From Hymenobacteraceae bacterium (GTDB lineage Bacteria > Bacteroidota > Bacteroidia > Cytophagales > Hymenobacteraceae), in the NCBI GenBank assembly GCA_031425525.1, contig JANPJM010000087.1, positions 1 to 30,339 on the forward strand: a stretch of 30,339 nt of DNA, in the 5' to 3' direction. The stretch's first letter is position 1, and the number at the start of each line of letters is the position of its first letter. The notes under the pieces were generated by a model that worked only from the letters and a program-made list of their open reading frames with translations, was not told where the DNA came from and made no database searches. Below are positions 5,571-26,505 of this stretch, piece by piece. Both the position numbers and the translations under genes were made by a program.

Positions 5571-5762
5571 AGGCAAATCTTTTTGGCTCAAACGATGAGC
5601 ATTTTCAAAACTTATTCGTACTATTGTGCCGTAAATCTACGACCAAAAGCTTCAAAACCGCAAGCAAGTTGCTGCATTTTTGAGCAATGCCTGCTTTTAT
5701 GCAGCCCAACTGCCCCCGTCGCCTACCTTAGCCCGCCCTTCCGTACTTACCCGCTCAGCCCG

Positions 5763-6173
5763 ATGCCTAACCCGTACTTCGACAAAATTCGGCAGTACCT
5801 CCACGAGTTGGGCGGTACCGTGGCAGTGGCAGACCCCGCCACCGGCGTTTTTGTGGTCAGCAAGCCCGAATTGGGCATTTACCAGCTCGTGATCGGGTGT
5901 GCCGACCCGCTGCTCATTCTGGAGCAGCACCTGCTCATCCTGCCCGAGCCGACCCTGCGGATTTACCAGCGGCTGCTGCAAAAAAACCGCGACATCATTC
6001 ACGGCGCGTTCGTGCTCGACGATACCGGCCGCCGCGTCATCTTCCGCGATACGCTCCAGATCGGTACTCTCGACCGCGACGAGCTGGAGGCGTGTTTCAA
6101 CTCGCTCGGGCTGCTGCTGAGCGAGTTTGCCACCGAACTGATTGCCTTTTCCAAGCCCACTTTCACTTCCTAA
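5763..6173 (+). CDS. small cytoplasmic protein, YbjN/DUF2170 (YjfI)-like putative sensory-transduction regulator; first gene of the PspA operon
   Basis: 136 aa, starts MPNPYFDKIRQYLHELGG. Sits 16 bp upstream of pspA in the same orientation. E. coli yjfI (DUF2170) precedes the PspA paralog yjfJ in the same way. The family assignment is by gene order and general appearance, not by a verified motif. Confidence 0.35.
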   Translation: MPNPYFDKIRQYLHELGGTVAVADPATGVFVVSKPELGIYQLVIGCADPLLILEQHLLILPEPTLRIYQRLLQKNRDIIHGAFVLDDTGRRVIFRDTLQIGTLDRDELEACFNSLGLLLSEFATELIAFSKPTFTS

Positions 6174-6189
6174 GCCTGACCCCAATCCG

Positions 6190-6906
6190 ATGAGTATTTT
6201 TTCCCGCCTTTTCAAAATCGGGCAGGCCGAAGCGCATTCGGCCGTCGATAAGCTCGAAGACCCCATCAAACTCACCGAACAAGGGCTGCGCGATTTGCGC
6301 ACCGAGTTCGACAAGGCGCTGCATGCCCTCGCCGATGTGAAGGCGATGGTGATCCGGGCGCGCACCGACGGCGAGCAGGCCCGCCAACGCGCCGCCGACT
6401 ACGAAGACAAGGCCATCCACCTGCTCCAGCGGGCGCAGCGCGGCGAGCTGGCCGCCCCCGAAGCCGACCGCCTCGCCGGCGAAGCCCTCCTCAAGAAGGC
6501 CGAACACGACGCCCACGCCACCCGCGCGGCAGCCGATCAGGAACGGTTCGCGCAGTCGGCGAACCAGCTCGATCAGAACGTGCAGCAACTCAAGGGCACG
6601 ATGGAAAAGTGGGAAAACGAGCTAAAAACCCTTAAAGCGCGCGTGCGCGTCAGCACCGCCACCCGCACGATCAACGAGCAGCTCGCGCGCCTCGATTCGA
6701 CGGGCACCATCGCGCTGCTCGAACGGATGAAGGAGCGCGTCGCGCACGACGAGGCGCTGGCGGAGTCGTACGGCGAGCTGGCGCAACGGCACCGCAACGT
6801 TGACGCCGAAATCGACCGCGCCCTGACCCAGGCGCCCGCCGACCGTGCCCAGCACGCGCTCGACGCGCTCAAAGCGCGGCTGGCGCTGCCGCCGGCCAGC
6901 GAGTAA
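6190..6906 (+). CDS. pspA: PspA/IM30 (phage shock protein A/Vipp1, ESCRT-III-like) family protein
   Basis: 238 aa, starts MSIFSRLFKIGQAEAHSAVDKLEDPIKLTEQGLRDLRTEFDKAL..., the canonical PspA N-terminus. The rest is long helices with coiled-coil character and an Ala/Arg/Glu-rich composition. Confidence 0.85.
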   Translation: MSIFSRLFKIGQAEAHSAVDKLEDPIKLTEQGLRDLRTEFDKALHALADVKAMVIRARTDGEQARQRAADYEDKAIHLLQRAQRGELAAPEADRLAGEALLKKAEHDAHATRAAADQERFAQSANQLDQNVQQLKGTMEKWENELKTLKARVRVSTATRTINEQLARLDSTGTIALLERMKERVAHDEALAESYGELAQRHRNVDAEIDRALTQAPADRAQHALDALKARLALPPASE

Positions 6907-6944
6907 CTTGACACTGTACCTGTAGGTAATAGCCAGCGTTCTGT

Positions 6945-7364
6945 ATGGGCTCTTTCAACGTATTGCTTCAATTCGCGCACCATCAGCATTCCGAAAATGA
7001 AGAACACTGGTGTACGACTCCCGAGGAAGTAACGGCGCTGTTCGATGCGTTTGACTGGGCCGGTGAAACCGATAAATCCAACCGGCTCGAACGCGTCTCG
7101 CCGACCCTCAGCGTCGAAACCCGTCAGCCGGCGGCATTGCTGTGGGTGTCATCCATCGGCGACGCGCCCAATCTGGAATTCATCTCCGAGTATACGTTTC
7201 CGGCCGATACTACCCGACTCTTTGGCTTGTGGTCGGGCTCCGGTCGCAAAACCCTGCACACCAGCTCGTTCACTTTATTTCAGGCGCGAGAAGCGGTTGC
7301 GCTGTTCACGCGCCAGGCACAAGCGGAATTACTCGCCCTCTATCATTCAGCCGGCACCCGATGA
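6945..7364 (+). CDS. hypothetical soluble acidic protein (139 aa) between pspA and the YqiJ-like gene
   Basis: ORF with ATG at 6945. Its stop TGA (7362-7364) overlaps the ATG (7361-7363) of the next gene. No recognisable motif. Confidence 0.5.
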   Translation: MGSFNVLLQFAHHQHSENEEHWCTTPEEVTALFDAFDWAGETDKSNRLERVSPTLSVETRQPAALLWVSSIGDAPNLEFISEYTFPADTTRLFGLWSGSGRKTLHTSSFTLFQAREAVALFTRQAQAELLALYHSAGTR

Positions 7365-8017
7365 CCGAACTGCTTCAAGCGGCCGTTGCGCCGCCCAACC
7401 TGCTGCCGACGGCGCTGCTGGTCTTCGTGGTGCTGTACTGGCTGTCGGTGATGATCGGGCTGGTGGGGTCGGATGCGCTCGACCTGCACCACGACTTTGC
7501 GCACGATGTGGGGCACGACGTGGGCCACGACCACCCCGGAACGCACGGCGGCCTCGGCACCGACTGGCTCAACAACGCGCTGGCGTTCTTCAATCTGGGA
7601 CGGGTACCGCTGATGTTCTGGTTGTCGTTCGTGGCGCTGCCGCTCTGGGTGGGCAGTATTCTGGTGAACTACGAACTGGGCAATACGTCGGGGCTGGTTG
7701 GGCTGGCGCTGCTGCTGCCGCTGCTGCTGGTGAGCCTGTTCGTGGCCAAAATCCTGACGCTGCCGTTCGTCAAGCTGTTTGCGGCGATGGAAAAAGACCA
7801 CGGCGCCGGCGCGCAGCCCATCGGCAAGGTGTGTACCGTGGTGTTGCCCGCCACCCACGCGCTGCTCGGCCAGGCCAGTATTCGCCTCCCCGACGGCGCG
7901 CCGCTCACGCTCAACGTGAAAGCACTCTCGCCGACCGCTACCTTTCGCAAAGGCGACCAAGCGCTCGTGATCGATTTCGACGCCCAGCGCCGGTGCTATC
8001 TGATTGAGCCCTATTGA
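7361..8017 (+). CDS. YqiJ/DUF1449-like inner-membrane protein with a C-terminal NfeD-type OB-fold (flotillin partner)
   Basis: 218 aa with an N-terminal TM helix, a His/Asp-rich segment DLHHDFAHDVGHDVGHDHPGTHGG, further TM helices, and a C-terminal beta-rich GKVCTVVLPATHALLGQASIRLPDGAPLTLNVKALSPTATFRKGDQALVIDFD resembling the NfeD OB-fold. It is immediately upstream of a flotillin gene, as in E. coli yqiJ-yqiK. Confidence 0.7.
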   Translation: MTELLQAAVAPPNLLPTALLVFVVLYWLSVMIGLVGSDALDLHHDFAHDVGHDVGHDHPGTHGGLGTDWLNNALAFFNLGRVPLMFWLSFVALPLWVGSILVNYELGNTSGLVGLALLLPLLLVSLFVAKILTLPFVKLFAAMEKDHGAGAQPIGKVCTVVLPATHALLGQASIRLPDGAPLTLNVKALSPTATFRKGDQALVIDFDAQRRCYLIEPY

Positions 8018-8019
8018 TC

Positions 8020-8051
8020 GCTGATGTAGCTGATTGTCTGATTCCGCTGAT
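8020..8051 (+). promoter_or_regulatory. four tandem (G)CTGAT motifs at 9-bp spacing (8020, 8029, 8037, 8046), with additional TGAT motifs at 8001 and 8015
   Basis: Read directly: gCTGATgtaGCTGATtgtCTGATtccGCTGATttg. Lies in the 140-bp spacer before the flotillin gene. Confidence 0.4.
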
Positions 8052-8102
8052 TTGTTGAGTTGCCACATCGAACCCTACTAAACCGTCTGCTTCCTGCGCT
8101 GC

Positions 8103-8132
8103 GGGCGGGCACAAGGCCCGCCCCTACTTTTT
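8103..8132 (+). promoter_or_regulatory. GC hairpin (GGGCGGGC-acaag-GCCCGCCC) followed by CTACTTTTT; either an internal intrinsic terminator/attenuator or a Bacteroidota -7 promoter box (TAnnTTTG-like) for the flotillin gene
   Basis: 8-bp perfect stem followed by a T-run, 26 bp upstream of the flotillin ATG at 8158. The same hairpin+TACTTTTT arrangement recurs at 10333-10362. Confidence 0.45.
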
Positions 8133-8157
8133 CGGTTATCTTCCCCAATTCCCTCCA

Positions 8158-10332
8158 ATGATTGCCCAACTTTCGTGGGCGGCGCTGATCATCATCGGCC
8201 TGCTGCTCCTCGGTTTTCTTTCGATTCTGGTGCGCATGTACCAGAAAGCCGTGCAGGGCGAAGCCCTGGTGCGCACCGGCCTCGGCGACACGAAAGTGTC
8301 GTTTTCGGGGATGTTCGTCATTCCCATCATTCACCGGTTGGAGGTGATGGATATTACCCTCAAATCGATGGTGATTGCGCGTCACGGGGCCGAGGGGTTG
8401 GTGTGTAAAGACAACCTGCGGGCCGACGTGAAGGTCAATTTTTTCGTGCAGGTCAATAAAACGCCCGGCGATGTGATTCACGTCGCGCAGAGCATCGGCT
8501 GCCGGCGCGCTTCCGACCCGGCGGCGCTCGAAAACCTCTTCGACGCCAAGTTTTCCGAAGCGCTGAAAGCCGTCGGTAAACGGTTCGATTTTATCGAGCT
8601 GTATAATTCCCGCGAAGAATTCAAGCAGGAAATTTTGCGCGTCATCGGCACCGACCTCAACGGCTACGTCCTCGACGACTGCGCGATTGATTACCTGGAG
8701 CAAACGCCGTTGTCGGCGCTGAATGAAAATAATATTCTGGACGCCGAGGGCATCAAGAAAATCATTGCGCTGACGTCGGAACAGAAGATTCAGGCCAACC
8801 AGATCGAGCGCGACAAACAGCGCACGATTAAAAAACAGGACGTGGAAGCGCAGGAAACCATTTTGCAGCTCGAAAAGCAATTGGTGGAAAATCAGGAAAA
8901 GCAGAAGCGCGAAATTGCCAATATCAAAGCGCGCGAGGCGGCCGAAACCGAGAAAGTCATTCAGGAAGAACGGTTGAAGAGCGAGCGCGCCAAGATTCAG
9001 ACCGACGAAGAATTGCAGGTGGCCGGGCAAAACCGCGACCGGCAGATCATCGTGGCCGAGCGGAACAAGGAGCGCACCGACGCCATCGAAACCGAGCGGG
9101 TGGCCCAGGCCAAAGCGCTGGAAGCCAACGAGCGCGAGCGCATCGTGGCGCTGGCGCAGATCGAGAAGGAAAAAGCCCTCGAAGAAGAGCGCAAGAATAT
9201 TCAGGGCATCATCCGTGAGCGGATTACGGTGGAAAAAGCCACCGTGCAGGAGGAGGAGAAAATCAAGGATACCCGCGCCCAGGCCGGCGCCGAGCGCGAA
9301 AAAATGGTAGCGCTCACAGCCGCCCAGCAACTGAACCAGGCCGCAACCATCGCGCTGGTCGGGCAGGCCGAAATGGGCAAGCAAGCGGCCGAGTTCCGGG
9401 CGAAACAGGCGTTGATCGATGCCGAAGCCGAGCGCGGCACCGCCGAGCAGCACGCGCTGGCCGTGAAAGTGCTGGCGGAGGCAGAGGCGAGCAAAACGTC
9501 GGCCGTGGGGCTGGCCGAGGCCCAAGTGATGCAGGCCAAAGCGGGCGCGCGCCAGAAGGAAGGCGAAGCGGAAGCGCACGTCATGCAGCTTACGGCGACG
9601 GCCGAGGCGCAGGCGATTCAGGTGAAAGCGGTGGCGCAGGCCGAGGCCGACGAGAAGTTGGGGATGGTGGCGGCGAAAGTCAATCGCGAAAAAGGGCTCG
9701 CCGACGCCAGCATCATCGAAGCGCGCGCCGACGCCGACCAGAAGAAAGGTTTTGCCGAAGCCGCCGTGAGCGAGCAGAAATTTGCGGTGGAAGCCAAAGG
9801 CATCGAGGCGAAAGCCGACGCGATGAAGAAGCTCGACGGGGTGGGCAAAGACCACGAAGAGTTCAAGCTCCGGCTCGACAAGGAGAAGTCGGTGGAGCTG
9901 GCGCAGATCAGCATCCAGAAGGATATCGCTGCCGCGCAGAGCGCCGTTATCGGCGAGGCCCTCAAGGCGGCGAAAATCGACATCGTGGGCGGCGAAACGA
10001 TGTTCTTCGACCAGATCATCGGCTCGATCACGAAGGGTAAGATGATCGACCGGGCGGTGCAGAACAGCGAGGTGCTGGGCACGGTGAAGGACGCGTTTTT
10101 CGGCCCCGGCGCGGGCGGCGACGGCGACTTCAAAACCAATATGCGGCGGTTCGTCGAGCAGTTCGGCCTTAAGTCCGACGACATCAAGAACCTGAGCATT
10201 TCGGCCCTGATGCTGCAAATGATGCAAACCACCGACTCCGACAGCACGCGTTCCGCGCTCCGCCAACTGCTCGACACGGCCACCACGCTGGGGCTCGCCG
10301 ACAAGCCCGTGCGGACGATTGATTTGACGTAA
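8158..10332 (+). CDS. flotillin-family protein (SPFH/band-7 domain, YqiK-like) with a very long coiled-coil region; 724 aa
   Basis: N-terminal TM MIAQLSWAALIIIGLLLLGFLSILV, then an SPFH-like domain (VRTGLGDTKVSFSGMFVIPIIHRLEVMDITLKSMVI...), then hundreds of residues of E/K/A/Q-rich heptad-like repeats typical of flotillins. Confidence 0.85.
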   Translation: MIAQLSWAALIIIGLLLLGFLSILVRMYQKAVQGEALVRTGLGDTKVSFSGMFVIPIIHRLEVMDITLKSMVIARHGAEGLVCKDNLRADVKVNFFVQVNKTPGDVIHVAQSIGCRRASDPAALENLFDAKFSEALKAVGKRFDFIELYNSREEFKQEILRVIGTDLNGYVLDDCAIDYLEQTPLSALNENNILDAEGIKKIIALTSEQKIQANQIERDKQRTIKKQDVEAQETILQLEKQLVENQEKQKREIANIKAREAAETEKVIQEERLKSERAKIQTDEELQVAGQNRDRQIIVAERNKERTDAIETERVAQAKALEANERERIVALAQIEKEKALEEERKNIQGIIRERITVEKATVQEEEKIKDTRAQAGAEREKMVALTAAQQLNQAATIALVGQAEMGKQAAEFRAKQALIDAEAERGTAEQHALAVKVLAEAEASKTSAVGLAEAQVMQAKAGARQKEGEAEAHVMQLTATAEAQAIQVKAVAQAEADEKLGMVAAKVNREKGLADASIIEARADADQKKGFAEAAVSEQKFAVEAKGIEAKADAMKKLDGVGKDHEEFKLRLDKEKSVELAQISIQKDIAAAQSAVIGEALKAAKIDIVGGETMFFDQIIGSITKGKMIDRAVQNSEVLGTVKDAFFGPGAGGDGDFKTNMRRFVEQFGLKSDDIKNLSISALMLQMMQTTDSDSTRSALRQLLDTATTLGLADKPVRTIDLT

Positions 10333-10362
10333 GCGCGGACATTCTGTCCGCGCTACTTTTTC
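10333..10362 (+). terminator. hairpin GCGCGGACA-ttc-TGTCCGCGC followed by TACTTTTTT; intrinsic terminator/attenuator between the flotillin and giant ATPase genes (alternatively a -7 promoter box)
   Basis: Perfect 9-bp stem with a 3-nt loop and a T-tract, starting directly after the flotillin stop (10330-10332). The motif ends 6 bp before the ATG at 10368. Confidence 0.5.
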
Positions 10363-10367
10363 TCCGA

Positions 10368-13300
10368 ATGGAAACCCCTCCTCCCCCGCAGCTCGAAGGC
10401 GGCACGTACGAAATTCTGCGCGCCCGCCTGACCAAGAGCGGCGCCGACCTGCGCGCGCGCCTCACGGCCCTCAATGCCGAGCGTAAGCAGGTATTCGGGG
10501 CCGTCGATACGCGCCTGATCGGCACGGGCCGGATCACCACCGAACACCATTGCGTGCCCTGGAATATGGTGCCGGTGGGCGGGCGGTTTCTGTTCGGTTT
10601 CAACGTGGTACTGGGGCTGAAAACGGAGGTTGAGCTGAGCGACGTATTCGGTATCTACGACTACACCGACCACGATTTCCGCCCCCAGCCGCTCGATGCG
10701 TTGCGCGACCCCCGGTTCGAGGAGGAGTTTCGGAACCTCTACCGCTTCTACCGGCAGACCCAGTTTTCGGCCTTTGCCGTGCGCGGGCCGCACCTGTTCA
10801 TGGTGTTCCGGGTGGGCAAGAGCGCCACGGATGTCAAGACGTTCAAGTGGCTGATCGGCGCCGACGACCGCCTGACCTACCTCGACAACCGCTCCGACCA
10901 CGAGTACACCTTTCCGCCGGCGCAGGAATTCAGCTGGAAGCGCGCCACCCGCGATATGCAGCGCGGCGGGCGCCACCCGCACGTCTCGATTGAAGACCGC
11001 TGCTTCGTGGAAACCGTCGGCGGCGACCTCACGATCAAAGTCGAAGACAATACCGAAATCGGCCAGGGCATCCTCTCCGAGCCGGTCGAGCAGAAAGATC
11101 AGTCGCTCGATGACGCCGAGATTCACTACGCCGTAGTCGGGCATTTGGTGCTGCTCAAGATTCGGCCGTATCAGGAAGCCGCATTTCGCCATTTTTTGTA
11201 CAACGGCAAGACCCGGCAAGCGCGCCGCCTCGATGCGCTGGCCGACGCCGTGCAGTTGCTGCCCGACGGTCAGGGGTTGATTTTCCCCGGCGGCGTGGCC
11301 TTGCAGAACGGCGAAGGCAAACAGTTTGAGAACGCCCCCGCCGACACGGTTTTCGAGCGGCGCGTGGCCTCGCCCAACGGCGAAGACTACCTGTACTGCT
11401 TCTATCAGCGCACCAGCGGGCAGTATTGGCTGCTGAGCTACAACCGCATCGAGCAGCGCGTGGAGGCGCCGATTGCCTGCCACGGCTTCGCCCTCTTCGA
11501 CAACGGCGAGCTGTGCTTTTTCCGCGCCGAAGAAGAGCCGCGCAAGCACCACGCCGTGCAAATCTGGCAGACGCCCTACACCGCGCCCGACTACGAGTTA
11601 CCCGTCACGCGCGACTCGTACCTCTACAAACTCGGCAACAAGGAGATCGTGCGGGCGCTCGCCGAAGGGCAGGAAGTGCTGACCCTTACGGCCAAGGAAG
11701 ACAGCTACGCCGGCCTGTACCTCGACCTCGGCCGCCTCACCACCACCCTGCTCGACGCCTACCACTGGCTCACCGAACCCGCCGCCCAGACGCTGGCCGA
11801 GCCGTTGCGCGAGATTCGGCAGACGGCGCTGGCCGCCGTCGAGGAGTTCGATAAGGTGCAGCGGATCCGCAGCGCCACGGCCGCCGAAACCACCCTCGTG
11901 CTGACCCGCGCCACCGACCTGAGCGCCCGCCTGAAGCGCGCCGCGCCCGACACCGTGGCCGCCTACGTGCAGGCGCTGGCCGAGCTGCGGGCCGCGCGCG
12001 GCGAGGTGGTGGGCCTACGCGAACTGCGCTACGCCGACCTGCCCGCCATCGAGCGGGCCGCCACCGAATTGGAACTGCTCACCCAGGTGACGGCGAACCA
12101 GACGGTCGAATTCCTGCTCCGGCCCGACGCCCTCGCGCCCTACGAGCAGCGCGTGACGGCCATTGCCGACGGCATCGAGGGGGTGCAGAAAACGGTGGAA
12201 GCCGATGCGCGGGAGCAGGAAATCGGGGCGGTGTCGGGCGAGTTGGAACTGCTGATCGATGTAGTGGGCGGGCTGCCCATCCCCGACCCCACCCAAACCA
12301 CCGCCATCATCGAGCGGCTGTCGGCGATCTACGCCCGCTTCAACCAGATCAGGGCCGCCCTCAAGCGGCGGCGGCAAAGTTTGGCGGGCACCGAAGCCCA
12401 GGCGCAGTTTGCCGCCCAGCTCCGGCTGCTCGATCAAACGCTCGTCAATTACCTCGATCTGAGCGATACACCCGCCAAGTGCGACGAGTACCAGACCCGT
12501 CTGCTGGTGCAGCTCGAAGAAATCGAGGGGCGTTTTCCGGAGTTCGAAGGATTTTTGGAGCGCCTCACCGAGAAGCGCGAAGCCGTCCTCGAAGCGTTCG
12601 AGACGCGCAAGGCGGCCCTGGTGGCGGCCCGCAATCAGCGCGCAACGGCCCTGCTGCAAGCCGCCGAGCGCCTACTGACCGCCGTGCGCAGCCGGGTAGC
12701 GCGCCTGACCACCGCCGCCGAGCTGAACGGCTACTTTGCCGCCGATGTGCTGGTGGCGAAGGTGCGGCAGACGGCCGCCGAGCTGCTCGCCCTCGGCGAC
12801 CCGGTGAAGGCCGACGACGTGCAGGGGCGCCTCAAAACCCTGCGCGACGAGAGTCTGCGCCAACTCAAAGACCGCACGGAACTGTACACCGATGGCGGGC
12901 AGGTGATCCGGTTCGGGCCGCACGCCTTCACCGTAAACCAGCAACCGCTGGAACTCACGACGGTCTTGCGCGACGAGGTACTGCACTTTCACCTCACGGG
13001 CACCAACTTTTTTCAGCCCATCGCCGACCCCGCCATCGAGGCTGCCCGCGACCTGTGGGATCAGCCGCTACCGTCGGAAAACGCCCACGTGTACCGCGCC
13101 GAGTGGCTGGCGTGGCAGTTGCTGGAAGCAGCGGCCCACCCCGTCCCCGCCGACCCCGAACGCGGCACGCCGGCCGTGCTGTCGCTCCCGGAACTGGCGC
13201 ACCTCACGCCCCCCGAACTGCTGGCCTACGTGCAGACCGCGATGGCCCCGCGCTACCCCGAAGGCTACCTCAAGGGTGTCCACGACCACGACGGCGCCCT

Positions 13301-15293
13301 ACTCCTCGAAGCCCTCGTGCGCCTGGCCCGCACCGCCGACCTGCTGCGCTACCCCGCCGAGGCCCGCGCCGCCGCCGCGCTGTGGTGGGCGCAATTTGCG
13401 CCGCCCGAGCGCCGCGCGGCCTGGGAACTGCGGTTGCGCGGCCTCGGGCAGTTGCAGCGGGTGTTCCCCGGCGCCGATGCCAGTGCGGCGCTACGCGCCG
13501 AAATCGGGGCCGAGCTGGCGGCCTTCCTCACGCAAACCCAGCTTTTCGACCCGGCCGCCGTGGAAGAAGCGGCCGATTACCTTGTCACGGAGCGCGCGCG
13601 CGGCACCGCGTTCATCATCGCCGCCGAAGCCGCCGAACTGAGCCGCCTGTTCTGGCAGACCGTGCGCGAGCGCCAGGCCGATGCCGTCTTCGATGAGTCG
13701 ATGGCGGAGTTGGCCGCGCAACCCGCCGCCCGCTTTGCGCTGGCGCGCGAGTGGCTCGGCGCCTTTCTCGCCCAGCAACCCGCCGACGCACCGGCCGGCG
13801 CCCTGCGCCCGTGGCTGAGCGAGGCGGCATTGTTGCTCGTCACCGATTCCTTTGACGCCGCGCACGTCGTGAGCGTGCCCACGCGCCTCACGCTCGACGG
13901 TTTGCAGGGTACGCACCCGCGCATCCACGAACGCCGTTACGAGCTGGATTTTCCGGAGTTCCGCCACCGGCTGCGGCATTTCGGGCGCGTTACGGCGCCC
14001 CGGTTTGCCCACTTCACGGCCCTCAAAAAGGAGCGGCTTGCGCACGCCGCCGAGGCGCTGCGGCTCGCCGATTTTCAGCCGCGCGTGCTGTCGTCGTTCG
14101 TGCGCAACCGCCTGCTCGACCAGGTGTACCTGCCGCTGATCGGGGCTAACCTCGCCAAACAGATCGGCACGGCCGGCACCGACAAGCGCACCGACCTGAT
14201 GGGCCTACTGCTGCTCATCTCGCCGCCGGGCTACGGCAAAACCACGCTCATCGAGTACGTGGCGGCGCGCCTGGGGCTGGTGTTCGTGAAGGTCAGCGGC
14301 CCGGCGCTGGGGCATCACGTTACGGCTGTAGACCCCGAACAGGCGCCCAACGCCGGGGCCCGCGACGAGCTGCGGAAGCTGAACCTGGCGTTCGAGATGG
14401 GCGACAACGTGCTGATTTACCTCGATGACATCCAGCACTGCAACCCCGAGTTTCTGCAAAAATTCATCTCCCTCTGCGACGCCCAGCGCCGCATCGAGGG
14501 CGTGTGGGAGGGCCGCCCGCGCACCTACGATTTTCGGGGCCGCAAAGTGGCCGTCGTGATGGCCGGCAACCCCTACACCGAATCGGGCGACGTGTTTCGG
14601 CTGCCCGATATGCTCGCCAACCGCGCCGACATCTACAACCTCGGCGACATCATCGGCACGTCCGCCGACGCCTTCCGGCTTTCTTACCTCGAAAACAGCC
14701 TCACGGCGAACCCCGTTTTGCGGCGCCTCGCCACCCGTAGTCCCGCCGACTTTTACCCGATTCTGCGCCTCGCCGAAAGCGCCGATCAGGGGGGCGCCGC
14801 CGAGCCGCTCGACCTCGAAGCGAATCACTCGCCGGAAGAAATAGCGGAGTACGTGGCCGTGTTGCGCCACCTGCTGATCCTGCGCGACGCCGTGGTGCAG
14901 GTCAATGAGGCGTATATCGCGTCGGCGGCTCAGGCCCAGGATTACCGCACCGAGCCGCCCTTCCGGCTGCAAGGCTCCTACCGCAACATGGCCAAGCTCG
15001 CCGAGAAGGTGCAGCCCCTGCTCAACGCCGCCGAGCTGCAAGGGCTCCTCGCCGACCACTACGAAAGCGAGGCCCAGACCCTTACCACCGCCGCCGAAGC
15101 CAACCTGCTCAAGCTCCGCGAGCTACTCGGTTGGCAAACCCCCGCCGACACCGCGCGCTGGGCCGAAATCAAGGCGACGTTTCAGCACAATCTGCGCCTG
15201 AGCAGCGGCGGCCAAAACGCCCAGATGCTCGAGCAGCTCACGAGCATTGCCGGGGGGCTGGCGGGGATTCGGGAGGTGTTGGGGCGGGGGTAG
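10368..15293 (+). CDS. giant (1641 aa) multidomain protein: unknown N-terminal domain, about 800 aa helical/coiled-coil middle, C-terminal MoxR/dynein-type AAA+ (AAA_5-like) ATPase module
   Basis: Uninterrupted 4926-bp ORF. Walker A LLLLISPPGYGKTTLIEY (about 14228-14245), Walker B NVLIYLDDIQH (about 14409-14440), and sensor-1/Arg-finger region VAVVMAGNPYTESGDVFRLPDMLANRADIY. The middle is Ala/Leu/Glu/Arg-rich helical sequence. The antisense strand also has long open frames, as expected for this composition. Confidence 0.8.
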   Translation: METPPPPQLEGGTYEILRARLTKSGADLRARLTALNAERKQVFGAVDTRLIGTGRITTEHHCVPWNMVPVGGRFLFGFNVVLGLKTEVELSDVFGIYDYTDHDFRPQPLDALRDPRFEEEFRNLYRFYRQTQFSAFAVRGPHLFMVFRVGKSATDVKTFKWLIGADDRLTYLDNRSDHEYTFPPAQEFSWKRATRDMQRGGRHPHVSIEDRCFVETVGGDLTIKVEDNTEIGQGILSEPVEQKDQSLDDAEIHYAVVGHLVLLKIRPYQEAAFRHFLYNGKTRQARRLDALADAVQLLPDGQGLIFPGGVALQNGEGKQFENAPADTVFERRVASPNGEDYLYCFYQRTSGQYWLLSYNRIEQRVEAPIACHGFALFDNGELCFFRAEEEPRKHHAVQIWQTPYTAPDYELPVTRDSYLYKLGNKEIVRALAEGQEVLTLTAKEDSYAGLYLDLGRLTTTLLDAYHWLTEPAAQTLAEPLREIRQTALAAVEEFDKVQRIRSATAAETTLVLTRATDLSARLKRAAPDTVAAYVQALAELRAARGEVVGLRELRYADLPAIERAATELELLTQVTANQTVEFLLRPDALAPYEQRVTAIADGIEGVQKTVEADAREQEIGAVSGELELLIDVVGGLPIPDPTQTTAIIERLSAIYARFNQIRAALKRRRQSLAGTEAQAQFAAQLRLLDQTLVNYLDLSDTPAKCDEYQTRLLVQLEEIEGRFPEFEGFLERLTEKREAVLEAFETRKAALVAARNQRATALLQAAERLLTAVRSRVARLTTAAELNGYFAADVLVAKVRQTAAELLALGDPVKADDVQGRLKTLRDESLRQLKDRTELYTDGGQVIRFGPHAFTVNQQPLELTTVLRDEVLHFHLTGTNFFQPIADPAIEAARDLWDQPLPSENAHVYRAEWLAWQLLEAAAHPVPADPERGTPAVLSLPELAHLTPPELLAYVQTAMAPRYPEGYLKGVHDHDGALLLEALVRLARTADLLRYPAEARAAAALWWAQFAPPERRAAWELRLRGLGQLQRVFPGADASAALRAEIGAELAAFLTQTQLFDPAAVEEAADYLVTERARGTAFIIAAEAAELSRLFWQTVRERQADAVFDESMAELAAQPAARFALAREWLGAFLAQQPADAPAGALRPWLSEAALLLVTDSFDAAHVVSVPTRLTLDGLQGTHPRIHERRYELDFPEFRHRLRHFGRVTAPRFAHFTALKKERLAHAAEALRLADFQPRVLSSFVRNRLLDQVYLPLIGANLAKQIGTAGTDKRTDLMGLLLLISPPGYGKTTLIEYVAARLGLVFVKVSGPALGHHVTAVDPEQAPNAGARDELRKLNLAFEMGDNVLIYLDDIQHCNPEFLQKFISLCDAQRRIEGVWEGRPRTYDFRGRKVAVVMAGNPYTESGDVFRLPDMLANRADIYNLGDIIGTSADAFRLSYLENSLTANPVLRRLATRSPADFYPILRLAESADQGGAAEPLDLEANHSPEEIAEYVAVLRHLLILRDAVVQVNEAYIASAAQAQDYRTEPPFRLQGSYRNMAKLAEKVQPLLNAAELQGLLADHYESEAQTLTTAAEANLLKLRELLGWQTPADTARWAEIKATFQHNLRLSSGGQNAQMLEQLTSIAGGLAGIREVLGRG

Positions 15294-15603
15294 CTTGGGG
15301 GCAATCCCAAGCGGTGGGATACAAGTCGTTTGTAGCCTCACGCCCACTGCCGACCTTTGAAGCACAGGTGCTGCACTCCAACCATCTGCTGGCCTGCGGT
15401 GGGCAACAAGCCGATAAGCTGGCTGTGCCCAACAGGAGGCGCGGCAGCGATCTGATATATTAAAAATTGCTGCGCTATATAAAACGAACACACGGCTGAC
15501 CGCCCCACCAATGACCCACAGAGCAGATCGCCCTGATTGACGCGCAACGGTTGGGCCAGCGGAACCTGCTGGTGGCGGCTCACTCGCCTATCTTGCACCG
15601 CAT

Positions 15604-16953
15604 ATGAGCGCCACGAACTACCACCTGAATCTTTTCCGGCACTATGCCGCCAACACCACCGACGAGGTGCTGGAAAACAACCTGACCCGCGCGCTGGCCC
15701 TGTGCCTGATGCACGATCCGGTTTTCCTGTACGCGTTCTTGGAAGAGATTCTGACCCGCGACGCTTTACATCAGGAGCTTCACTTGCTGAATGATGATGC
15801 GAGCCGAATTGTGATTGACGTCCAGCGGCCGGTCAACCAACTGGCGGCTTGTGAGACGTTGTACGCGGTAGCGCTCACCGCTGGCCCACTCGACGCGACC
15901 GATTATGAGGCTGCGTCAGCCCACACCACAGACGCGCCGATCACCGACCTGACCATTCGGCTCAACGATGTGTTGATTTTGGTGGAAGTGAAACGAACCG
16001 GCGAAGACTGTCTCGGCCAGCTCAAACAACAAGTTGGCGTTTACCGGCGTGAAGTGGCCGCCAAAGAAGGCACGACTGATGTTGCCCCTACCGTGCGAAC
16101 CTTGAGTTGGGCGCGTACCACGCGCCTGGCGACCGATCTACACCACTTTCGTCAATTAGCGGGCGCACCTCAACCGTTTACCGCCGATCTGGTGGAGTTG
16201 ATCCGCTCCAATTACCCTACTTGGGACGAAGCGCTTTACCTCAGAGCGATTCAGTTTCGGACTCCCGAGGGCAAAATCAAGTGGGAAGACATCAACCGCC
16301 GCCTGCACGACATTCAGTATCGCACCTTCGGCGACCGAATGAAGTGGTTTCACGACCGGGTATCGATGCCCATTGATCAGCCGTGGGCCAGCGAAGTCAT
16401 TAGCCAGCCCGATTGGGACGAGGCCGAACAACGCGCCTACATCGCGTTACAGGTATGGCCCGGCAACACGAAAGGTCAAGGATGGCCGATTTACAGCCGT
16501 TCGCTCGATTGGACCACGCGCGATTCGCTGGAAATCGACGGGAAGCGTTACCCACTCGTCGTTATTCAGCAGTTCAAGTTTTCGCACTTCAACAAGTTCA
16601 TCGGCGAGTACGATATGGACGAGTTGCCGGTGCAGTACGTGCCCAATTTTCGTAGCTGGGCGGCTTACGAGAAGTATTCGGGCCAGAAGTGGCGCGATAG
16701 CTGGCCTCAACTCGAAGCGATGCTCGACGCCGATACCGGCGGCCACTGGCGGCAAGTCTATCAGATGTGGCAGGACAAGTTCATCAACTCCAACCGCAAT
16801 TACTGCAATCTGTCGCTGGGCTTCTATGTGAAGGTGCGACTTCCTTACGAAGAGTTGCGCGCCCTTGACTCCGGGCCGGAGCAGTGGGTTGCGGTGGGCA
16901 GTAAGTTTAAAGCCGCCATTCAGGCATTGGTCGATCTAGTAGAAGGACGGTGA
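15604..16953 (+). CDS. hypothetical protein (449 aa) with an N-terminal PD-(D/E)xK (RecB/Cas4-like) nuclease signature; lower GC than flanks
   Basis: ...APITDLTIRLNDVLILVEVKRTGEDCLGQLKQQVGVY: D ... E-V-K followed by a Q...Y motif, as in restriction-endonuclease-like folds. GC is about 55% versus 65-70% for neighbours. A 310-bp spacer separates it from the giant gene. Confidence 0.55.
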   Translation: MSATNYHLNLFRHYAANTTDEVLENNLTRALALCLMHDPVFLYAFLEEILTRDALHQELHLLNDDASRIVIDVQRPVNQLAACETLYAVALTAGPLDATDYEAASAHTTDAPITDLTIRLNDVLILVEVKRTGEDCLGQLKQQVGVYRREVAAKEGTTDVAPTVRTLSWARTTRLATDLHHFRQLAGAPQPFTADLVELIRSNYPTWDEALYLRAIQFRTPEGKIKWEDINRRLHDIQYRTFGDRMKWFHDRVSMPIDQPWASEVISQPDWDEAEQRAYIALQVWPGNTKGQGWPIYSRSLDWTTRDSLEIDGKRYPLVVIQQFKFSHFNKFIGEYDMDELPVQYVPNFRSWAAYEKYSGQKWRDSWPQLEAMLDADTGGHWRQVYQMWQDKFINSNRNYCNLSLGFYVKVRLPYEELRALDSGPEQWVAVGSKFKAAIQALVDLVEGR

Positions 16954-17070
16954 GTTACGCCTAAGTTGGGTTGAAAATCCAGACAGCGTAAAGCACCTTT
17001 CCCGCCCACACTAGCCTTATAACACCCCGGAACCCGAAAATAGCCAACGCTGTCCCCGACAAATAGCCCT

Positions 17071-17478
17071 GTGGAAACCATCTTCGAACTGCTGATACCG
17101 CGCCGGCCCAAGTCGCTGCAAGCCAAGAACGCCAAGTTGCAGCAGTGGAAAAGCTACGTGCGCGACTTGGCCCGTACCGAATGGAACGGCCCACCGCACG
17201 TAGCGCCGGCTTTCCGGGTAACGCTGGTGTATTTATGCGATGTGGACGCGGCCGACATCGACAACATCATCAAGCCGATTCAGGATGCGCTGGTGGGCGT
17301 GGTGATGCCCGACGATAATTTGGTAAGCGATGTTGACAGTCACGGCCGGCTACTGGATCAGGCGTTCGACCTGACCGATTTGCCTGCCTTGCTCGTTCAA
17401 GGCGCCCAGGCGCAACGGGAATGCGTTTACGTGCGCGTCTTGGCGGGTGCGGTTTTACCTCTCACGCACTTTCTTTAA
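17071..17478 (+). CDS. rusA: RusA-family crossover junction endodeoxyribonuclease (Holliday junction resolvase)
   Basis: 135 aa from a GTG start: ...LIPRRPKSLQAKNAKLQQWKSYVRDLA...CDVDAADIDNIIKPIQDALVGVVMPDDNLV. This matches the RusA LPWPPSNN...DLDNLxKxxxDAL...DDxQV motif arrangement. Confidence 0.7.
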   Translation: METIFELLIPRRPKSLQAKNAKLQQWKSYVRDLARTEWNGPPHVAPAFRVTLVYLCDVDAADIDNIIKPIQDALVGVVMPDDNLVSDVDSHGRLLDQAFDLTDLPALLVQGAQAQRECVYVRVLAGAVLPLTHFL

Positions 17479-17485
17479 TACTACA

Positions 17486-18142
17486 ATGTCCTCAAAAGAA
17501 CAACACGATACGAAGCTGTTAGACCTAGCGCGGCAGTACGAAGCCCGTGGCTATACGGTGCAGGTGGAGCCAGCCCGCGAAGCGGTGCCCTTCGACCTCG
17601 GTGGCTACCGGCCCGATCTGCTGGCCGAGAAGGGAAGTGAACACCTCTTGGTTGAATTGAAAACGGGTGGGCCACTCCCGATCAACTACCTGCAACAAGT
17701 GGTGGAGACGGTGCGCCAGCACTCGGGGTGGCGCTTCATTTTGGTGAATGATGCCAACCCCTCGCTGGGCCTTGACACGCGGTTGCTGCCCGCCGCCGTG
17801 GTGGAGGAGAAGGCCAACCGCGCGGGCGTCCTGTTGGAGAACGGCGATGTGGAAGCGGCTTTTCTGCTGCTCTGGACCGTGTTAGAGGCACTACTTCGCC
17901 AACACGCCGAAGCGATTGGCCTACCCTTGCAACAGCAGCAACCGCGAACGCTCATCAACTACCTGTATTCCGAAGGCGATTTGGGAATGCCCCAATACGA
18001 CGTACTGATGGCCGCCCTGCCGGCACGCAACCAGCTTGCCCACGGGTACGAAGTGCCGAACTTGCCGCCACTGGCGCGCGACCTACACCGCACCCTGCGC
18101 GAGTTGCTGGACGAATGGGTCTCTACGCCCACCGTTGGGTAG
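17486..18142 (+). CDS. hypothetical protein (218 aa) with an N-terminal PD-ExK nuclease motif and a C-terminal HEPN-like R-x4-H motif
   Basis: GYRPDLLAEKGSEHLLVELKTGG (PD ... E-L-K) near the N-terminus. The C-terminal helical region contains ALPARNQLAHGYE (R-N-Q-L-A-H, i.e. Rx4H). The ATG at 17486 is preferred over the 17447 start, which overlaps the rusA end. Confidence 0.5.
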   Translation: MSSKEQHDTKLLDLARQYEARGYTVQVEPAREAVPFDLGGYRPDLLAEKGSEHLLVELKTGGPLPINYLQQVVETVRQHSGWRFILVNDANPSLGLDTRLLPAAVVEEKANRAGVLLENGDVEAAFLLLWTVLEALLRQHAEAIGLPLQQQQPRTLINYLYSEGDLGMPQYDVLMAALPARNQLAHGYEVPNLPPLARDLHRTLRELLDEWVSTPTVG

Positions 18143-18693
18143 CTTGCGCCCCTTACGACGCTCCCCGAAAATGACCAACCAGCCGTGCGCACCGTAGCCG
18201 CCCGCTACCACCTGAGTCGCGACGAGCAGGAACGAATGGCGCCCGCGTTCGATGCAGCAGTCGGCCGGGGCCACTAAACGGCGAGCAGACGGCGATCAGA
18301 CGGCACAACCCGTTTCTGCAAGCGCAGGAATTGCCACTTACTTGAACCACCCCAACCAAAAACCGCCCGGCCCCCTCCCCTCTTTCCAGAGGCTCAGGCG
18401 CCGGGCGGCTACGTTACAAACAATCAGCGGCCGTACCGGGGCGCGCCAAACATGTGGTTAGGCCGGGGCCACTACCGGCCGCGCGGGCTGCCCGCCCCGG
18501 CGGTCGTCCTGGCGGTTGGCCTGGCGGAAGCCTTTGACGAAGGCGGGGTTATCGTTGGTGAGGAGGCCGACGGCGGGCGCGGTGGTCGTTTTTGCTATAG
18601 TCGCGGGCGGCGCGCAGGGCGGCCGGTACCGATTCGCCAAGGTTTTTGGTGTCGGTGTGGGCGGTGCGGGGGGCGCCGGCCCATCTACCACCC

Positions 18694-23047: not shown

Positions 23048-23312
23048 GCGGTTCGCGCGGGGCTCTGCCCCGTGTGGAGTATTTCCGGGGCGCCTGCCCC
23101 GGCCCGCCGCGCGATTAAGTACTGCGCCAAAAGTAAATTGATAACGTGAGCCTCGTAACCTCCTGACAGACAATGCCAGGGCTTGCAGCTAGAAGCTAGA
23201 AGCTTGTGGCTAGCTACTTAATCGGTCCGTCTAGGCGGGCTACGGTAGCGGGCTACTGGCGGGCCAGAGGCCCGCGAGTACCACACACGGAGCAGAGCCC
23301 CGCGCGAAACGC
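23048..23312. repeat. 265-bp element bounded by imperfect roughly 30-bp inverted repeats (23048-23077 vs 23281-23312, 29/32 matched), with internal AGCTAGA tandem/palindromic core; MITE-like insertion or large structured attenuator inside the adaptor-ABC spacer
   Basis: gcggttcgcgcggggctctgccccgtgtgg vs revcomp of ccacacacggagcagagccccgcgcgaaacgc. Internal sequence cagctagaagctagaagcttgtggctagct. Confidence 0.5.
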
Positions 23313-23367
23313 GCATCGAACAAAAAAAGATAAACGACCGACAATCAACCGACAACTATCACCCACC

Positions 23368-24045
23368 ATGATCCAAATCCAAGACCTCGAAAAAATCTAC
23401 CGCACGGCGGAGGTAGAAACTGTTGCGCTCAACAAGTTGAGCCTTACCGTGCGCGAAGGCGAGTTTGTGGCGCTGATGGGACCGTCGGGCTGCGGCAAAT
23501 CGACGCTGCTCAACATCCTCGGGATGCTCGACGACCCCGAAACCGGCAGCTTTCAGTTCAACGGCATCGAAGTAGCCCACCTGCCCGAGCGCAAGCGCGC
23601 CGGTCTGCGCAAGCAATACCTGGGCTTCGTGTTCCAGAGCTTCAACCTGATCGATGAGCTGACGGTGTACGAAAACGTGGAGCTGCCGCTGATCTACCTC
23701 GGTGTTCCGGCCGCCGCGCGGCGGCCACGCGTCGAGGCCGTCCTCGAAAAGGTGCAGATTATGCACCGCCGCAACCACTTCCCGCAGCAGCTTTCGGGCG
23801 GGCAGCAGCAGCGCGTAGCCATTGCCCGCGCCGTAGTGAACGAGCCGAAGCTGATCCTGGCCGACGAACCCACCGGCAACCTCGATTCGGCCACCGGCAA
23901 GGAGGTCATGGAACTGCTCACCGACCTCAACGAGCAGGGCACCACCATCGTGATGGTCACGCACTCGGAACACGACGCCCGCTTCAGCCACCGCATCGTG
24001 CGCATGCTCGACGGCCAGACCGTAACGGAGAATATTCTGACGTGA
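23368..24045 (+). CDS. ABC transporter ATP-binding protein (MacB/LolD-type)
   Basis: Walker A GPSGCGKST, Q-loop, signature LSGGQQQRVAIARA, Walker B LILADEPTGNLD, H-loop VTHSE. Confidence 0.9.
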   Translation: MIQIQDLEKIYRTAEVETVALNKLSLTVREGEFVALMGPSGCGKSTLLNILGMLDDPETGSFQFNGIEVAHLPERKRAGLRKQYLGFVFQSFNLIDELTVYENVELPLIYLGVPAAARRPRVEAVLEKVQIMHRRNHFPQQLSGGQQQRVAIARAVVNEPKLILADEPTGNLDSATGKEVMELLTDLNEQGTTIVMVTHSEHDARFSHRIVRMLDGQTVTENILT

Positions 24046-24141
24046 GTGACCTCTTTGACTGAGTGAATGAGCGACTGAGTGCGAGGTCGTCATCCCATCG
24101 AAAATCACTCAATTCACCATCCCTCAATTCCTCCCTCTTCC

Positions 24142-26505
24142 ATGTTTCGCAACTACTTCAAAATTGCCCTGCGCAGCCTGTGGCGCAATCGTACTTACGG
24201 ACTGCTCAACATTCTGGGGCTGGCGGTGGGCGTGACGTGCGCCGCCCTCATCTTTCTGTGGGTGCAGGACGAAGTGACCTACGACGGCCACCACCGCAAG
24301 CGCGACCGGCTTTACCGGGTAATGAACAATCAGACGTACGACGGCACCACCTATACCTTCCCCGCTACGCCCGGTCCGCTCGGCCCGGCGCTGCGGGCCG
24401 AAGTGCCAGGGGTCGAGCGTACGGCCCGCGCGATGTGGGGCTCGACCGATTTGTTTTCGCGCGGCGAGAAGGCGATTTATGAGTACGGCAACTACGTCGA
24501 TCCGGCCTTCCTGGAAATGTTCACCATCGAGCTGGTGCACGGCCAGACCGCCACGGCCTTCCGCGAGCTGCATACGGTCATCATCAGCGAAGCGATGGCG
24601 CAGAAATTCTTCGGCGACCAGAATCCCGTGGGCCAGACCCTCGCGATGAACAACGCCCAGGCGCACACCGTGACCGGCGTGATGAAAGCCCAGCCCGCCA
24701 ACAGCTCGTTCCGGTTCGAGTGGCTGGCGCCGTTTGCGCTGACGTACAAAATCTACCCGTTCCTCGAACACGAATGGGGCAGCAACAGCGCCCAAACCTA
24801 CGTCGAGCTGGCGCCCACCGCCGACCCGGCCACCGTCGGGGGCATCGTCCACGGGTTTATTCGGGCCAAAGAGAAGGAGGCGAGCAGCACGTCGTTTCTG
24901 TTCCCGATGCGCGACTGGCGCCTGTACAGCAGCTTCACCAACGGCAAGCAAGACGGCGGGCGCATCGAGTACGTCCGGCTCTTCAGCCTCGTGGCGGGGT
25001 TCATCCTGCTGATTGCGTGCATCAACTTCATGAACCTCGCGACCGCCCGCTCCGAGAAACGGGCGCGCGAAGTGGGCATGCGCAAGGTGCTGGGCAGCAC
25101 CAAAGGAATGCTGGTGGGGCAGTTCATCGCCGAATCGCTGGCACTCTCGTTTCTGTCGGTGGCGGTAGCGGTAACGCTGATTTTGCTGGTTCTGCCGGCT
25201 TTCAACGCGTTGGTCGATAAAGACCTGATGCTCGACCTGCTCAGTCCGGCGCACCTGCTGGGGCTGGTGGGCATCGGACTACTGACGGGTCTGCTGGCGG
25301 GTTCTTACCCGGCGTTCTACCTCTCTTCGTTCGCGCCGGTGGCCGTGCTGAAGGGGCTGCGGATTCAGCCCGATTCGGGGGCGGCTTTTGTCCGCAAAGG
25401 GCTGGTGGTGTTTCAGTTCACGGTGTCCATCGTGCTCATCATCGGCACCACCATCGTCTATCAGCAAATCCGTTACGTGAAGGCGCGGCAGGTCGGCTAC
25501 GCCAAAGACCGGCTGATTTACCTACGGCTGAGTCAGGAACGGCTGACGCACTTCGGCGCCATCCGCGATGCGCTGGTAGCGTCCGGCGTTGTCGAAAACG
25601 CCGGGATGAGCGATAGCAACATCCTGAATCTGTACAGCAACGGCGGCGGCTGGAGCTGGGAGGGTAAAGACCCCGGCAAGGATATCCTCATCACGCAGGA
25701 ATCCGTCAGCCCGGAATACCTGCCCACCATTGCGCTGCCGCTGGTAGCGGGGCGGCAGTTTCGGACTGATATGGCATCCGACAGCACCAACCTCATCATC
25801 AACGAAACGCTGGCGCGGATGCTGAAAAAAGGCAACGCCGTTGGTACCCAGCTCGTGACCGACGAAGGCAAACGCTATGAAGTGGTGGGCGTGGTGCAGG
25901 ATTTTCTGTTCAACGATTTCTACAAAGCGCCGGAGCCGGTCATGTTCCGCGCCAGCGCCGCCAGCCCGACCACGCTCACGATCCGGCTGAAAGCTGGTAT
26001 CGATCTGCCCGCAGCCCTCGCCAAAGTAGGCGAAGTACTGAAGACCGCCAACCCCGGCTACCCCTTCGAATACAAGTTCGTGGATGAGGAATTCAATCGG
26101 CTTTTCAAGGGCGAAGACCTCATCGGGCGGCTGGCGGCCGTGTTTGCGGCGCTCGCCATCCTCATCTCGTGCCTGGGGTTGTTCGGCTTGGCGGCGTACA
26201 CCACCGAGCGGCGCACGCGCGAAATCGGCATTCGCAAAGTGCTGGGGGCGTCGCTGGCGTCTATCGTGCGGCTGTTGTCGGTCGATTTCCTCAAACTCGT
26301 GGGCCTTGCTTGCTTCATCGCCTTTCCGCTGGCGTGGTGGGCAACCAGTGCCTGGCTGGAGGGCTACGCCTACCACACGCCCATCAACTGGTGGGTTTTT
26401 GGGGCCGCCGGGGCGGCAGCGGCAACCATCGCCGTCGCGACGGTCAGTTTCCAGGCGATCAAGGCAGCGGTCAGCAATCCCGTCAAGAATCTGCGCACCG
26501 AGTAG
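24142..26505 (+). CDS. ABC transporter permease with duplicated FtsX-like domains (MacB-type), 788 aa
   Basis: N-terminal TM MFRNYFKIALRSLWRNRTYGLLNILGLAVGVTCAALIFLWV and a large periplasmic domain. Two 4-TM FtsX-type blocks (around aa 290-410 and 670-788), each preceded by an extracytoplasmic region. Confidence 0.85.
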   Translation: MFRNYFKIALRSLWRNRTYGLLNILGLAVGVTCAALIFLWVQDEVTYDGHHRKRDRLYRVMNNQTYDGTTYTFPATPGPLGPALRAEVPGVERTARAMWGSTDLFSRGEKAIYEYGNYVDPAFLEMFTIELVHGQTATAFRELHTVIISEAMAQKFFGDQNPVGQTLAMNNAQAHTVTGVMKAQPANSSFRFEWLAPFALTYKIYPFLEHEWGSNSAQTYVELAPTADPATVGGIVHGFIRAKEKEASSTSFLFPMRDWRLYSSFTNGKQDGGRIEYVRLFSLVAGFILLIACINFMNLATARSEKRAREVGMRKVLGSTKGMLVGQFIAESLALSFLSVAVAVTLILLVLPAFNALVDKDLMLDLLSPAHLLGLVGIGLLTGLLAGSYPAFYLSSFAPVAVLKGLRIQPDSGAAFVRKGLVVFQFTVSIVLIIGTTIVYQQIRYVKARQVGYAKDRLIYLRLSQERLTHFGAIRDALVASGVVENAGMSDSNILNLYSNGGGWSWEGKDPGKDILITQESVSPEYLPTIALPLVAGRQFRTDMASDSTNLIINETLARMLKKGNAVGTQLVTDEGKRYEVVGVVQDFLFNDFYKAPEPVMFRASAASPTTLTIRLKAGIDLPAALAKVGEVLKTANPGYPFEYKFVDEEFNRLFKGEDLIGRLAAVFAALAILISCLGLFGLAAYTTERRTREIGIRKVLGASLASIVRLLSVDFLKLVGLACFIAFPLAWWATSAWLEGYAYHTPINWWVFGAAGAAAATIAVATVSFQAIKAAVSNPVKNLRTE

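Follow-up and report, generated by a model that had tools for sequence, protein, structure and literature searches.

Several described systems share features with the locus considered here, a three-gene islet at positions 15294–18142 of a Hymenobacter-like contig of 30,339 bp that was analysed in its entirety (the window). A fusion of an AHJR-type restriction endonuclease (REase) domain with a HEPN domain was mentioned in passing in the HEPN survey of Anantharaman et al. (2013; PMC3710099) and underlies the Pfam family PF18743, and the same paper treats effectors embedded in type I restriction-modification (R-M) operons. HepT/MntA modules consist of a HEPN protein translationally coupled to a small upstream partner, and a further class of operons combines CesT/Tir and PspA proteins with a coiled-coil/β-propeller AAA+ ATPase (PMC11237479). 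The islet begins right after the stop codon of a giant ATPase gene and encodes a 449-aa protein (N449), a RusA-like protein and an AHJR-HEPN fusion protein, the last being of the type noted by Anantharaman et al. (2013). It is probably a mosaic horizontal insert of two independent accessory nuclease modules, of which the RusA-like/AHJR-HEPN pair would be a toxin-antitoxin (TA)-like or abortive-infection (Abi) module and N449 an accessory nuclease. The features are as follows:

15294–15603, plus strand: left junction and leader of the insert, a 310-bp intergenic region with 58.4% GC
15604–16953, plus strand: N449, 449 aa, with an N-terminal PD-(D/E)xK core and a C-terminal α/β region
16954–17070, plus strand: spacer separating the two modules, where the related contig L087 has an extra gene for a 111-aa HTH_31 protein
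17071–17478, plus strand: RusA-like protein, 135 aa, of a divergent non-phage subfamily with D62, D64, D82 and K68 intact
17486–18142, plus strand: AHJR-like PD-ExK/HEPN fusion, 218 aa, with P43-D44 and E57-x-K59, followed by E134, R138 and R181-N-x3-H186-G187
10368–15293, plus strand: giant DUF3686/DUF7902/AAA_5 ATPase, 1,641 aa, assigned with Pfam and lying outside the islet

The RusA-like and AHJR-HEPN genes form an obligate pair. Homologous loci and contigs used for comparison carry L-numbers (L081, L087, L096 and so on), and 80 metagenome loci were collected with the RusA-like profile. A RusA-like gene lies immediately upstream of every AHJR-HEPN homologue examined, and the AHJR-HEPN gene is found directly 3' of the RusA-like gene in 79 of 91 other loci, the remainder being mostly contigs that end after RusA. 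Among the 80 metagenome loci it follows wherever the contig reaches far enough. A 4-nt overlap of stop and start codon joins the two genes in 75 of these 79 loci. The window and L087 differ in having a 6–7-nt spacer, which runs from the RusA stop to the AHJR start (17476–17488 in the window). No third gene is conserved beside the pair, and its 114 flanking genes match 129 Pfam families, mostly of housekeeping type. The hosts belong to Bacteroidota and Cyanobacteria and include alphaproteobacterial plasmids (Agrobacterium, Rhizobium, Azospirillum), and some copies adjoin AbiEii/IS5/REase genes (AbiE, insertion sequence (IS) elements and restriction genes) or ligD/imuAB, while others on plasmids have unrelated surroundings.

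On the Agrobacterium plasmid pTi_CFBP2177 (L172, record positions 23222–25620) the pair directly follows ligD on the same strand, with imuA and a gene for a Y-family polymerase close by; these DNA-repair surroundings set this copy apart from the others. In L112 and L115 a 78-bp near-identical intergenic repeat precedes successive small genes, the pair among them (for instance at 4373, 6078 and 6924 in L115); it contains a promoter-like TTGACA...TATATA and gives the appearance of a cassette array.

The three same-strand genes had been assigned nuclease signatures in a first-pass annotation of the window made from the letters alone, and its domain calls proved correct. For the 135-aa protein, Pfam RusA (PF05866) matches residues 19–88 with 30.9 bits, above the gathering cut-off of 22.8 bits (E = 4.8e-7); the PHROG RusA-like match is weak (E = 1e-6), and the family profile gave no hit among PDB sequences. 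In an hhalign comparison, the DxDNxxK...DAL...DD motif of the window protein falls in register with E. coli RusA, D62, D64, K68 and D82 pairing with D70, D72, K76 and D91, its catalytic acidic triad and lysine. All 90 relatives keep D62, D64, N65, D72, D82, H91 and R93, and all but one keep K68 (89 of 90). The alignment further contains two invariant motifs, DVDSHRR and ECVYV, that are extra to this subfamily, which comprises at least 422 protein clusters at 90% identity, many of them cyanobacterial. At residue 92 (17344–17346), in the DVDSH-R-R motif, the window protein has G where 85 of 90 relatives have R, and L087 apparently carries the same change.

With the RusA of lambdoid prophages (PF05866), the window protein shares the score above the gathering threshold and the catalytic motif in register. 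It differs from that family in belonging to a divergent subfamily with the additional DVDSHRR and ECVYV motifs, in being always partnered with AHJR-HEPN and in never being met in a phage context in the loci analysed. The view that this RusA gene lies outside a prophage was upheld within the window, where we found no phage-type Pfam domains, tRNA genes or integrase similarity. A prophage remnant was accordingly discarded as an origin, the RusA-like protein matching PHROG only weakly, and no integrase remnant was found in the window either.

The 218-aa protein is, as had been proposed, a real fusion of a PD-ExK and a HEPN domain. Its N-terminal part matches Pfam AHJR-like (PF18743) over residues 3–93 (E = 7.5e-19, 67.9 bits) and has a restriction-endonuclease fold with the PD-ExK motif P43-D44 and E57-x-K59, while the C-terminal half carries the HEPN signature (E134, R138, R181-N-x3-H186-G187), its Rx4–6H motif lying on a four-helix up-down bundle. 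Profile searches confirmed the PD-ExK half through PF18743. The HEPN fold was confirmed too, and no Pfam HEPN family matched the protein at E ≤ 1. E134, R138 and H186 are present in 77 of 77 members and R181 in 75, whereas the AHJR site is looser, with D44 in 71, E57 in 74 and K59 in 65. Judged from these alignments, the RusA and HEPN active sites of the pair are under strict selection and the AHJR site under less strict selection. No match to the protein was found among 50,697 phage records. The mechanical list of open reading frames (ORFs) starts this gene at a different codon, GTG at 17447, and in Nostocales-like contigs the AHJR-HEPN ORF spans about 345–376 aa as compared with about 220 aa (L160 10345–11388, L165 10393–11523, L168 4033–5067), which suggests a C-terminal extension or fusion.

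The pair is laid out like HepT/MntA, the gene of a small partner preceding that of the HEPN protein, with translational coupling between them. In contrast to HepT/MntA, the partner is RusA-like in all loci examined, with no adjacent MNT nucleotidyltransferase, and an Hjc-like PD-ExK domain precedes the HEPN domain in the same protein. The RusA-like gene takes the upstream, 4-nt-overlapping place of the MNT antitoxin, and the pair is most likely a TA-like or Abi module. Growth would be arrested by the HEPN RNase, while branched DNA would be bound or cut by the two domains of junction-nuclease type, serving as the trigger or else as a second effector. For the islet, a role in defence or abortive infection is plausible. 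If the pair is active, RusA-type junction nucleases would be a new partner class for HEPN toxin systems, and branched-DNA sensing might be linked to RNA cleavage, a coupling that was not found in PADLOC or in the literature searched. The HEPN survey (PMC3710099) contains no mention of "RusA", and the literature searched on DUF3686, on AHJR and on RusA with HEPN or defence yielded no account of the obligate RusA-like partner, the distribution and mobility of the pair, or its flanking duplications.

The islet is a horizontally acquired insert, with the features of a genomic islet, as had been suspected at the first pass. The same upstream operon (LexA-like, CesT, PspA, DUF1449, a 722-aa protein, giant) is present on a Hymenobacter sp. 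DG25B plasmid, where the giant is 68% identical and the islet is lacking: DNA synteny covers window positions 5324–15288 and stops at the giant's stop codon (15288–15293), which in DG25B is followed after 7 bp by a convergent LytTR regulator gene. Comparison between genomes, one of the checks suggested at the first pass, thus recovered both the absence and the left boundary of the islet. A second copy of the trio is found on the metagenome contig L087, with amino acid identities of 93% for N449, 90% for RusA and 95% for AHJR (truncated by an IS element), and its neighbours there include two tyrosine integrases, an AAA_15/21 ATPase and hsdM. DNA shared between L087 and the window (about 90% identity) starts at 15585, 19 bp ahead of the N449 ATG, and by blastn a 29-bp segment of the window (16994–17023) corresponds to 379 bp in L087 (5213–5592) that hold the extra HTH_31 gene between N449 and RusA. 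Because the site is empty in DG25B, the fall in GC is limited to 15294–18142 and the L087 copy lies beside integrases, the islet is regarded as an insertion.

Base composition agrees with this in kind, if not in the degree first stated. A fall from about 67% to about 55% GC had been described; a distinct low-GC stretch is present, but it measures 57.9% over 15604–18142, against 67.2% in the giant and 63.3% in the contig, so that the step is smaller, and the contig is patchy throughout (53–73% in 600-bp windows). Right of 18142 the GC content returns at once to 67.7%. Outside the islet, just 0.2% of windows of that length are equally low, all of them at the contig start (first ~2.5 kb). GC at third codon positions (GC3) is 0.70–0.72 in the islet genes and averages 0.81 (sd 0.05) in 13 other genes (z = −1.6 to −2.1); both GC and GC3 deviate on recalculation, and the step in composition is real.

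N449 matches nothing in Pfam, NCBIfam, PADLOC or PHROG, and its profile gave nothing significant against PDB sequences. An alignment of 30 homologues shows E24, D115, E128-x-K130, Q139 and Q143 to be invariant, and in a confident AF2 model (pLDDT 88.7) the conserved residues sit on a core with the α-β-β-β-α-β order of PD-(D/E)xK enzymes. The order of secondary-structure elements (H20–60, E69–73, E85–92, E116–120, E123–129, H136–155, E162–168) is compatible with that core, and hhalign places the D and ExK motifs of N449 in register with those of the AHJR family (E = 6e-4). N449 thus has the residues and, as modelled, the core order of the PD-(D/E)xK superfamily, whereas its C-terminal α/β region weakly resembles YbjN and type III secretion chaperones. 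The family is compact: a set of 1.84 billion representatives contains 547 of its clusters at 50% identity, almost all of 430–460 aa.

The genomic surroundings of N449 relatives point to R-M systems. Eighty genome loci, from Bacteroidota, Gammaproteobacteria, Verrucomicrobia and Spirochaetota, were inspected, and none has a RusA, AHJR or giant gene beside N449. HsdM, HsdS and HsdR genes all lie within 6 kb of the relative in 22 of 77 loci, and in 18 of these 22 the order on one strand is M/S-N449-R, as in H. crusticola, Hymenobacter sp. CCM 8763 and Pontibacter; the nearest cultured relatives are among the loci with this order. The window's own N449 adjoins no R-M gene. In the 18 loci, N449 relatives hold the same-strand slot between hsdS and hsdR that is held by nucleases of the PrrC, RloC and ApeA type inside type I R-M operons, although N449 differs from these in combining a PD-(D/E)xK core with a YbjN-like C-terminal region and in having no ABC-ATPase or HEPN domain. 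The most likely role of N449 is that of an R-M-associated accessory effector, a DNA nuclease whose C-terminal region binds a protein or peptide; it would cleave DNA as an accessory or back-up defence nuclease, with the C-terminal region sensing a protein or peptide trigger. Through its recurrence in the hsdS-hsdR slot, this family, for which no curated model exists, is a candidate for a back-up effector in restriction systems.

Direct repeats flank some copies of the pair. In L096 the pair lies between two direct copies, 119 bp long and 93% identical, of the 3' end of the giant gene (156–274 and 1553–1671); the duplicated unit comprises the giant's last 37 codons and stop, and the second copy begins 3 bp past the AHJR stop codon. 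Two-copy local duplications also flank the pair in L086 (73 bp), L095 (252 bp), L153 (108 bp), L155 and L134/L135. Target-derived repeats of 41–252 bp flank the pair in about six clean cases among 74 testable loci. The repeats in L092, L098, L113 and L115 are dispersed multi-copy elements and carry no evidential weight. In the window, a 16-nt direct repeat brackets the pair, CCCGAAAATAGCCAAC at 17033–17048 and CCCGAAAATGACCAAC at 18164–18179 (14 of 16 positions identical), 38 bp before the start of the pair and 22 bp past its stop; the left copy is not kept in L087, and the repeat may be due to chance.

Further candidates for an insertion signature were tried and set aside. In a tblastn search behind the window pair, no leftover of the giant's 3' end like that in L096 was found (E > 0.3), the only likeness being 12 nt at 18204–18218, and a target motif common to the 3' ends of the giant and MoxR genes (CGNGAGGTGNTGG) was seen by eye only and is too weak to claim. 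A tRNA-targeted island was likewise dismissed, there being zero tRNA genes in the window or in the 11 loci with flanking repeats.

Several observations weigh against reading the pair as a TA-like or Abi module that is independent of its neighbours. The genes next to it are mostly housekeeping genes (ClpC, MutS, peptidase M16, DHH) with no enrichment for defence islands, and its synteny across several Nostocales contigs looks like stable inheritance. The RusA-like protein is about 60% identical between relatives and the HEPN partner 35–45%, the reverse of the usual antitoxin/toxin pattern, and the AHJR lysine is substituted in 12 of 77 members. PADLOC-DB v2.0.0, a search that had been proposed together with the defence idea, has no system model matching any of the three proteins: N449 and RusA gave zero hits, and the 218-aa protein only sub-threshold ones (Csx1/Csm6, E = 0.045; PD-Lambda-5_A, E = 0.058). 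Lastly, four contigs (the window, L091, L093 and L096) have the pair immediately behind the giant, and three more (L081, L082 and L169) have it directly behind a bpMoxR-type AAA_5 gene.

The flanking duplications would suit a pair that is primarily a selfish mobile cassette, an account that we consider unlikely, in which the RusA-like and AHJR-like nucleases promote the insertion or maintenance of the cassette and HEPN serves as an addiction toxin. The nucleases might, for instance, resolve a single crossover of the Campbell type that joins a circular intermediate to the 3' end of a target gene. Besides the target-derived repeats themselves, the position of the downstream copy within 3 bp of the AHJR stop codon in both L096 and L086, the former repeat being the last 119 bp of the giant, is in keeping with it, as are the extreme diversity of insertion contexts, mostly just 3' of unrelated genes, and the occurrence of the pair inside another operon, between MoxR and DUF5682. 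Most loci, however, have no flanking repeat, several of the repeats are of the dispersed kind that could flank the pair by chance, no recombinase or transposase accompanies it, and the window offers no clear duplication beyond its imperfect 16-nt repeat. A role of RusA-type enzymes in driving integration is not known. The adjacency to AAA_5 genes raises the notion, very improbable on the whole, that AAA_5 ATPase systems (the DUF3686 giant, MoxR/VWA) use the pair, or all of the islet, as an accessory effector arm, with the ATPase controlling or delivering the nucleases; the seven contigs with the pair behind a giant or behind bpMoxR, the latter in DUF5691/DUF5682/VWA clusters, speak for it. These contigs are all Hymenobacter-like; the giant of L091 is 68% identical and N449 is absent there. 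Against it, such an ATPase is missing from more than 80 pair loci, AAA_5 occurring in just seven of 114 neighbours, several of which are ClpC. In all three annotated plasmid operons inspected (DG25B, Pseudomonas pQBR103 and a Streptomyces plasmid) the giant comes last, with no RusA/HEPN genes downstream, N449 separates the giant from the pair in the window, the islet differs in composition from the giant, and the L096 duplication points to insertion at the giant site. We read the adjacency as insertion at a gene end, either recurrent or inherited, in preference to functional coupling, and the earlier suggestion of an effector arm of the giant is not supported.

Two other explanations concern the unity and the purpose of the genes. 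The first-pass annotation had treated all three as a single cassette, and a dedicated three-component defence system would account for their adjacency on one strand in both the window and L087 (89–93% identity); this we hold to be highly improbable, given that the window and L087 represent one evolutionary event, that the modules are separate in all other loci and that an HTH gene lies between them in L087 and is absent from the window. N449 stands beside the pair in one locus only, L087, of about 90 other pair loci, and N449 relatives never adjoin RusA or AHJR genes. Since N449 loci have no RusA, AHJR or giant gene and pair loci have no N449 except in L087, the islet holds two modules and not one system, and the cassette idea was given up: module 1 would be the solitary N449 nuclease and module 2 the translationally coupled RusA-like junction nuclease and AHJR-type PD-ExK/HEPN fusion. 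Very improbable, too, is a housekeeping or plasmid-borne repair-recombination module that resolves Holliday junctions and is no conflict system. The strict conservation of RusA catalytic residues, the stable Nostocales synteny and the Ti-plasmid copy beside ligD and imuA/imuB would all be expected of it, while a strictly conserved HEPN RNase site would not be expected in the partner of a junction resolvase, and the distribution is sporadic, the contexts vary to include IS elements, AbiE and integrase islands, and the closest relative with a giant lacks the pair.

With the TA-like or Abi reading kept as the favoured one for the pair, a more general and tentative proposal, which is somewhat doubtful as it stands, is that the pair represents a widespread and hitherto undescribed two-gene element in which a Holliday-junction-resolvase-type protein replaces the MNT partner of HepT-like HEPN toxins, and that it may either couple recognition or cleavage of branched DNA to RNase growth arrest, as a novel type of Abi or TA module, or insert itself at gene 3' ends, leaving long target duplications, as a novel type of mobile cassette. 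Duplications of this length suggest that the route of insertion may be unusual, which is open to testing.

The giant itself belongs to a PspA membrane-stress operon and should not be taken for a defence ATPase with nuclease effectors. The operon is complete, occupies 4794–15293 and comprises a divergent LexA/CI-like regulator (HTH_3/S24-like), CesT_Tir_1/YbjN, PspA/IM30, a DUF1449 (YqiJ-like) homologue at about 7357–8013, a 724-aa protein and the giant. The genes from CesT_Tir_1 through PspA, DUF1449/YqiJ-like and the 724-aa protein to the giant DUF3686-AAA fit the CesT/Tir-PspA operon class (PMC11237479), of which the islet, absent from the homologous DG25B site, is no component. The RefSeq name of the giant is "DNA repair ATPase", a name to which the genomic context gives no support, and in contig annotation the giant should be assigned to the PspA membrane-stress operon. 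In the three bpMoxR loci, L081 (2689–11714), L082 (3606–10219) and L169, which come from H. cavernae and two metagenome contigs, the pair lies within a DUF5691/bpMoxR AAA_5/DUF5682/VWA_CoxE cluster, which in L081 also has other inserted small genes (DinB_2, Imm51).

The three islet ORFs and the giant upstream are all on one strand. A promoter and terminator scan gave a signal no higher than the shuffled expectation, and a non-coding RNA search found no Rfam matches in the intergenic regions, including 15294–15603. Downstream of the islet lie convergent genes for a histidine kinase and a sigma-54 regulator, followed by a MacB-type efflux system, and the 550-bp gap between the islet and the histidine kinase gene contains a GC-rich hairpin at 18363–18408 (21-nt arms, 4-nt loop) that could be a bidirectional terminator. 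A second low-GC stretch (54–58%) forms the start of the contig (1–4621), with two minus-strand genes, one for a DUF6999 protein (1023–1925) and one for an 884-aa protein (1967–4621) in which a KAS-III-like and a haem-oxygenase-like (Haem_oxygenas_2) domain are fused.

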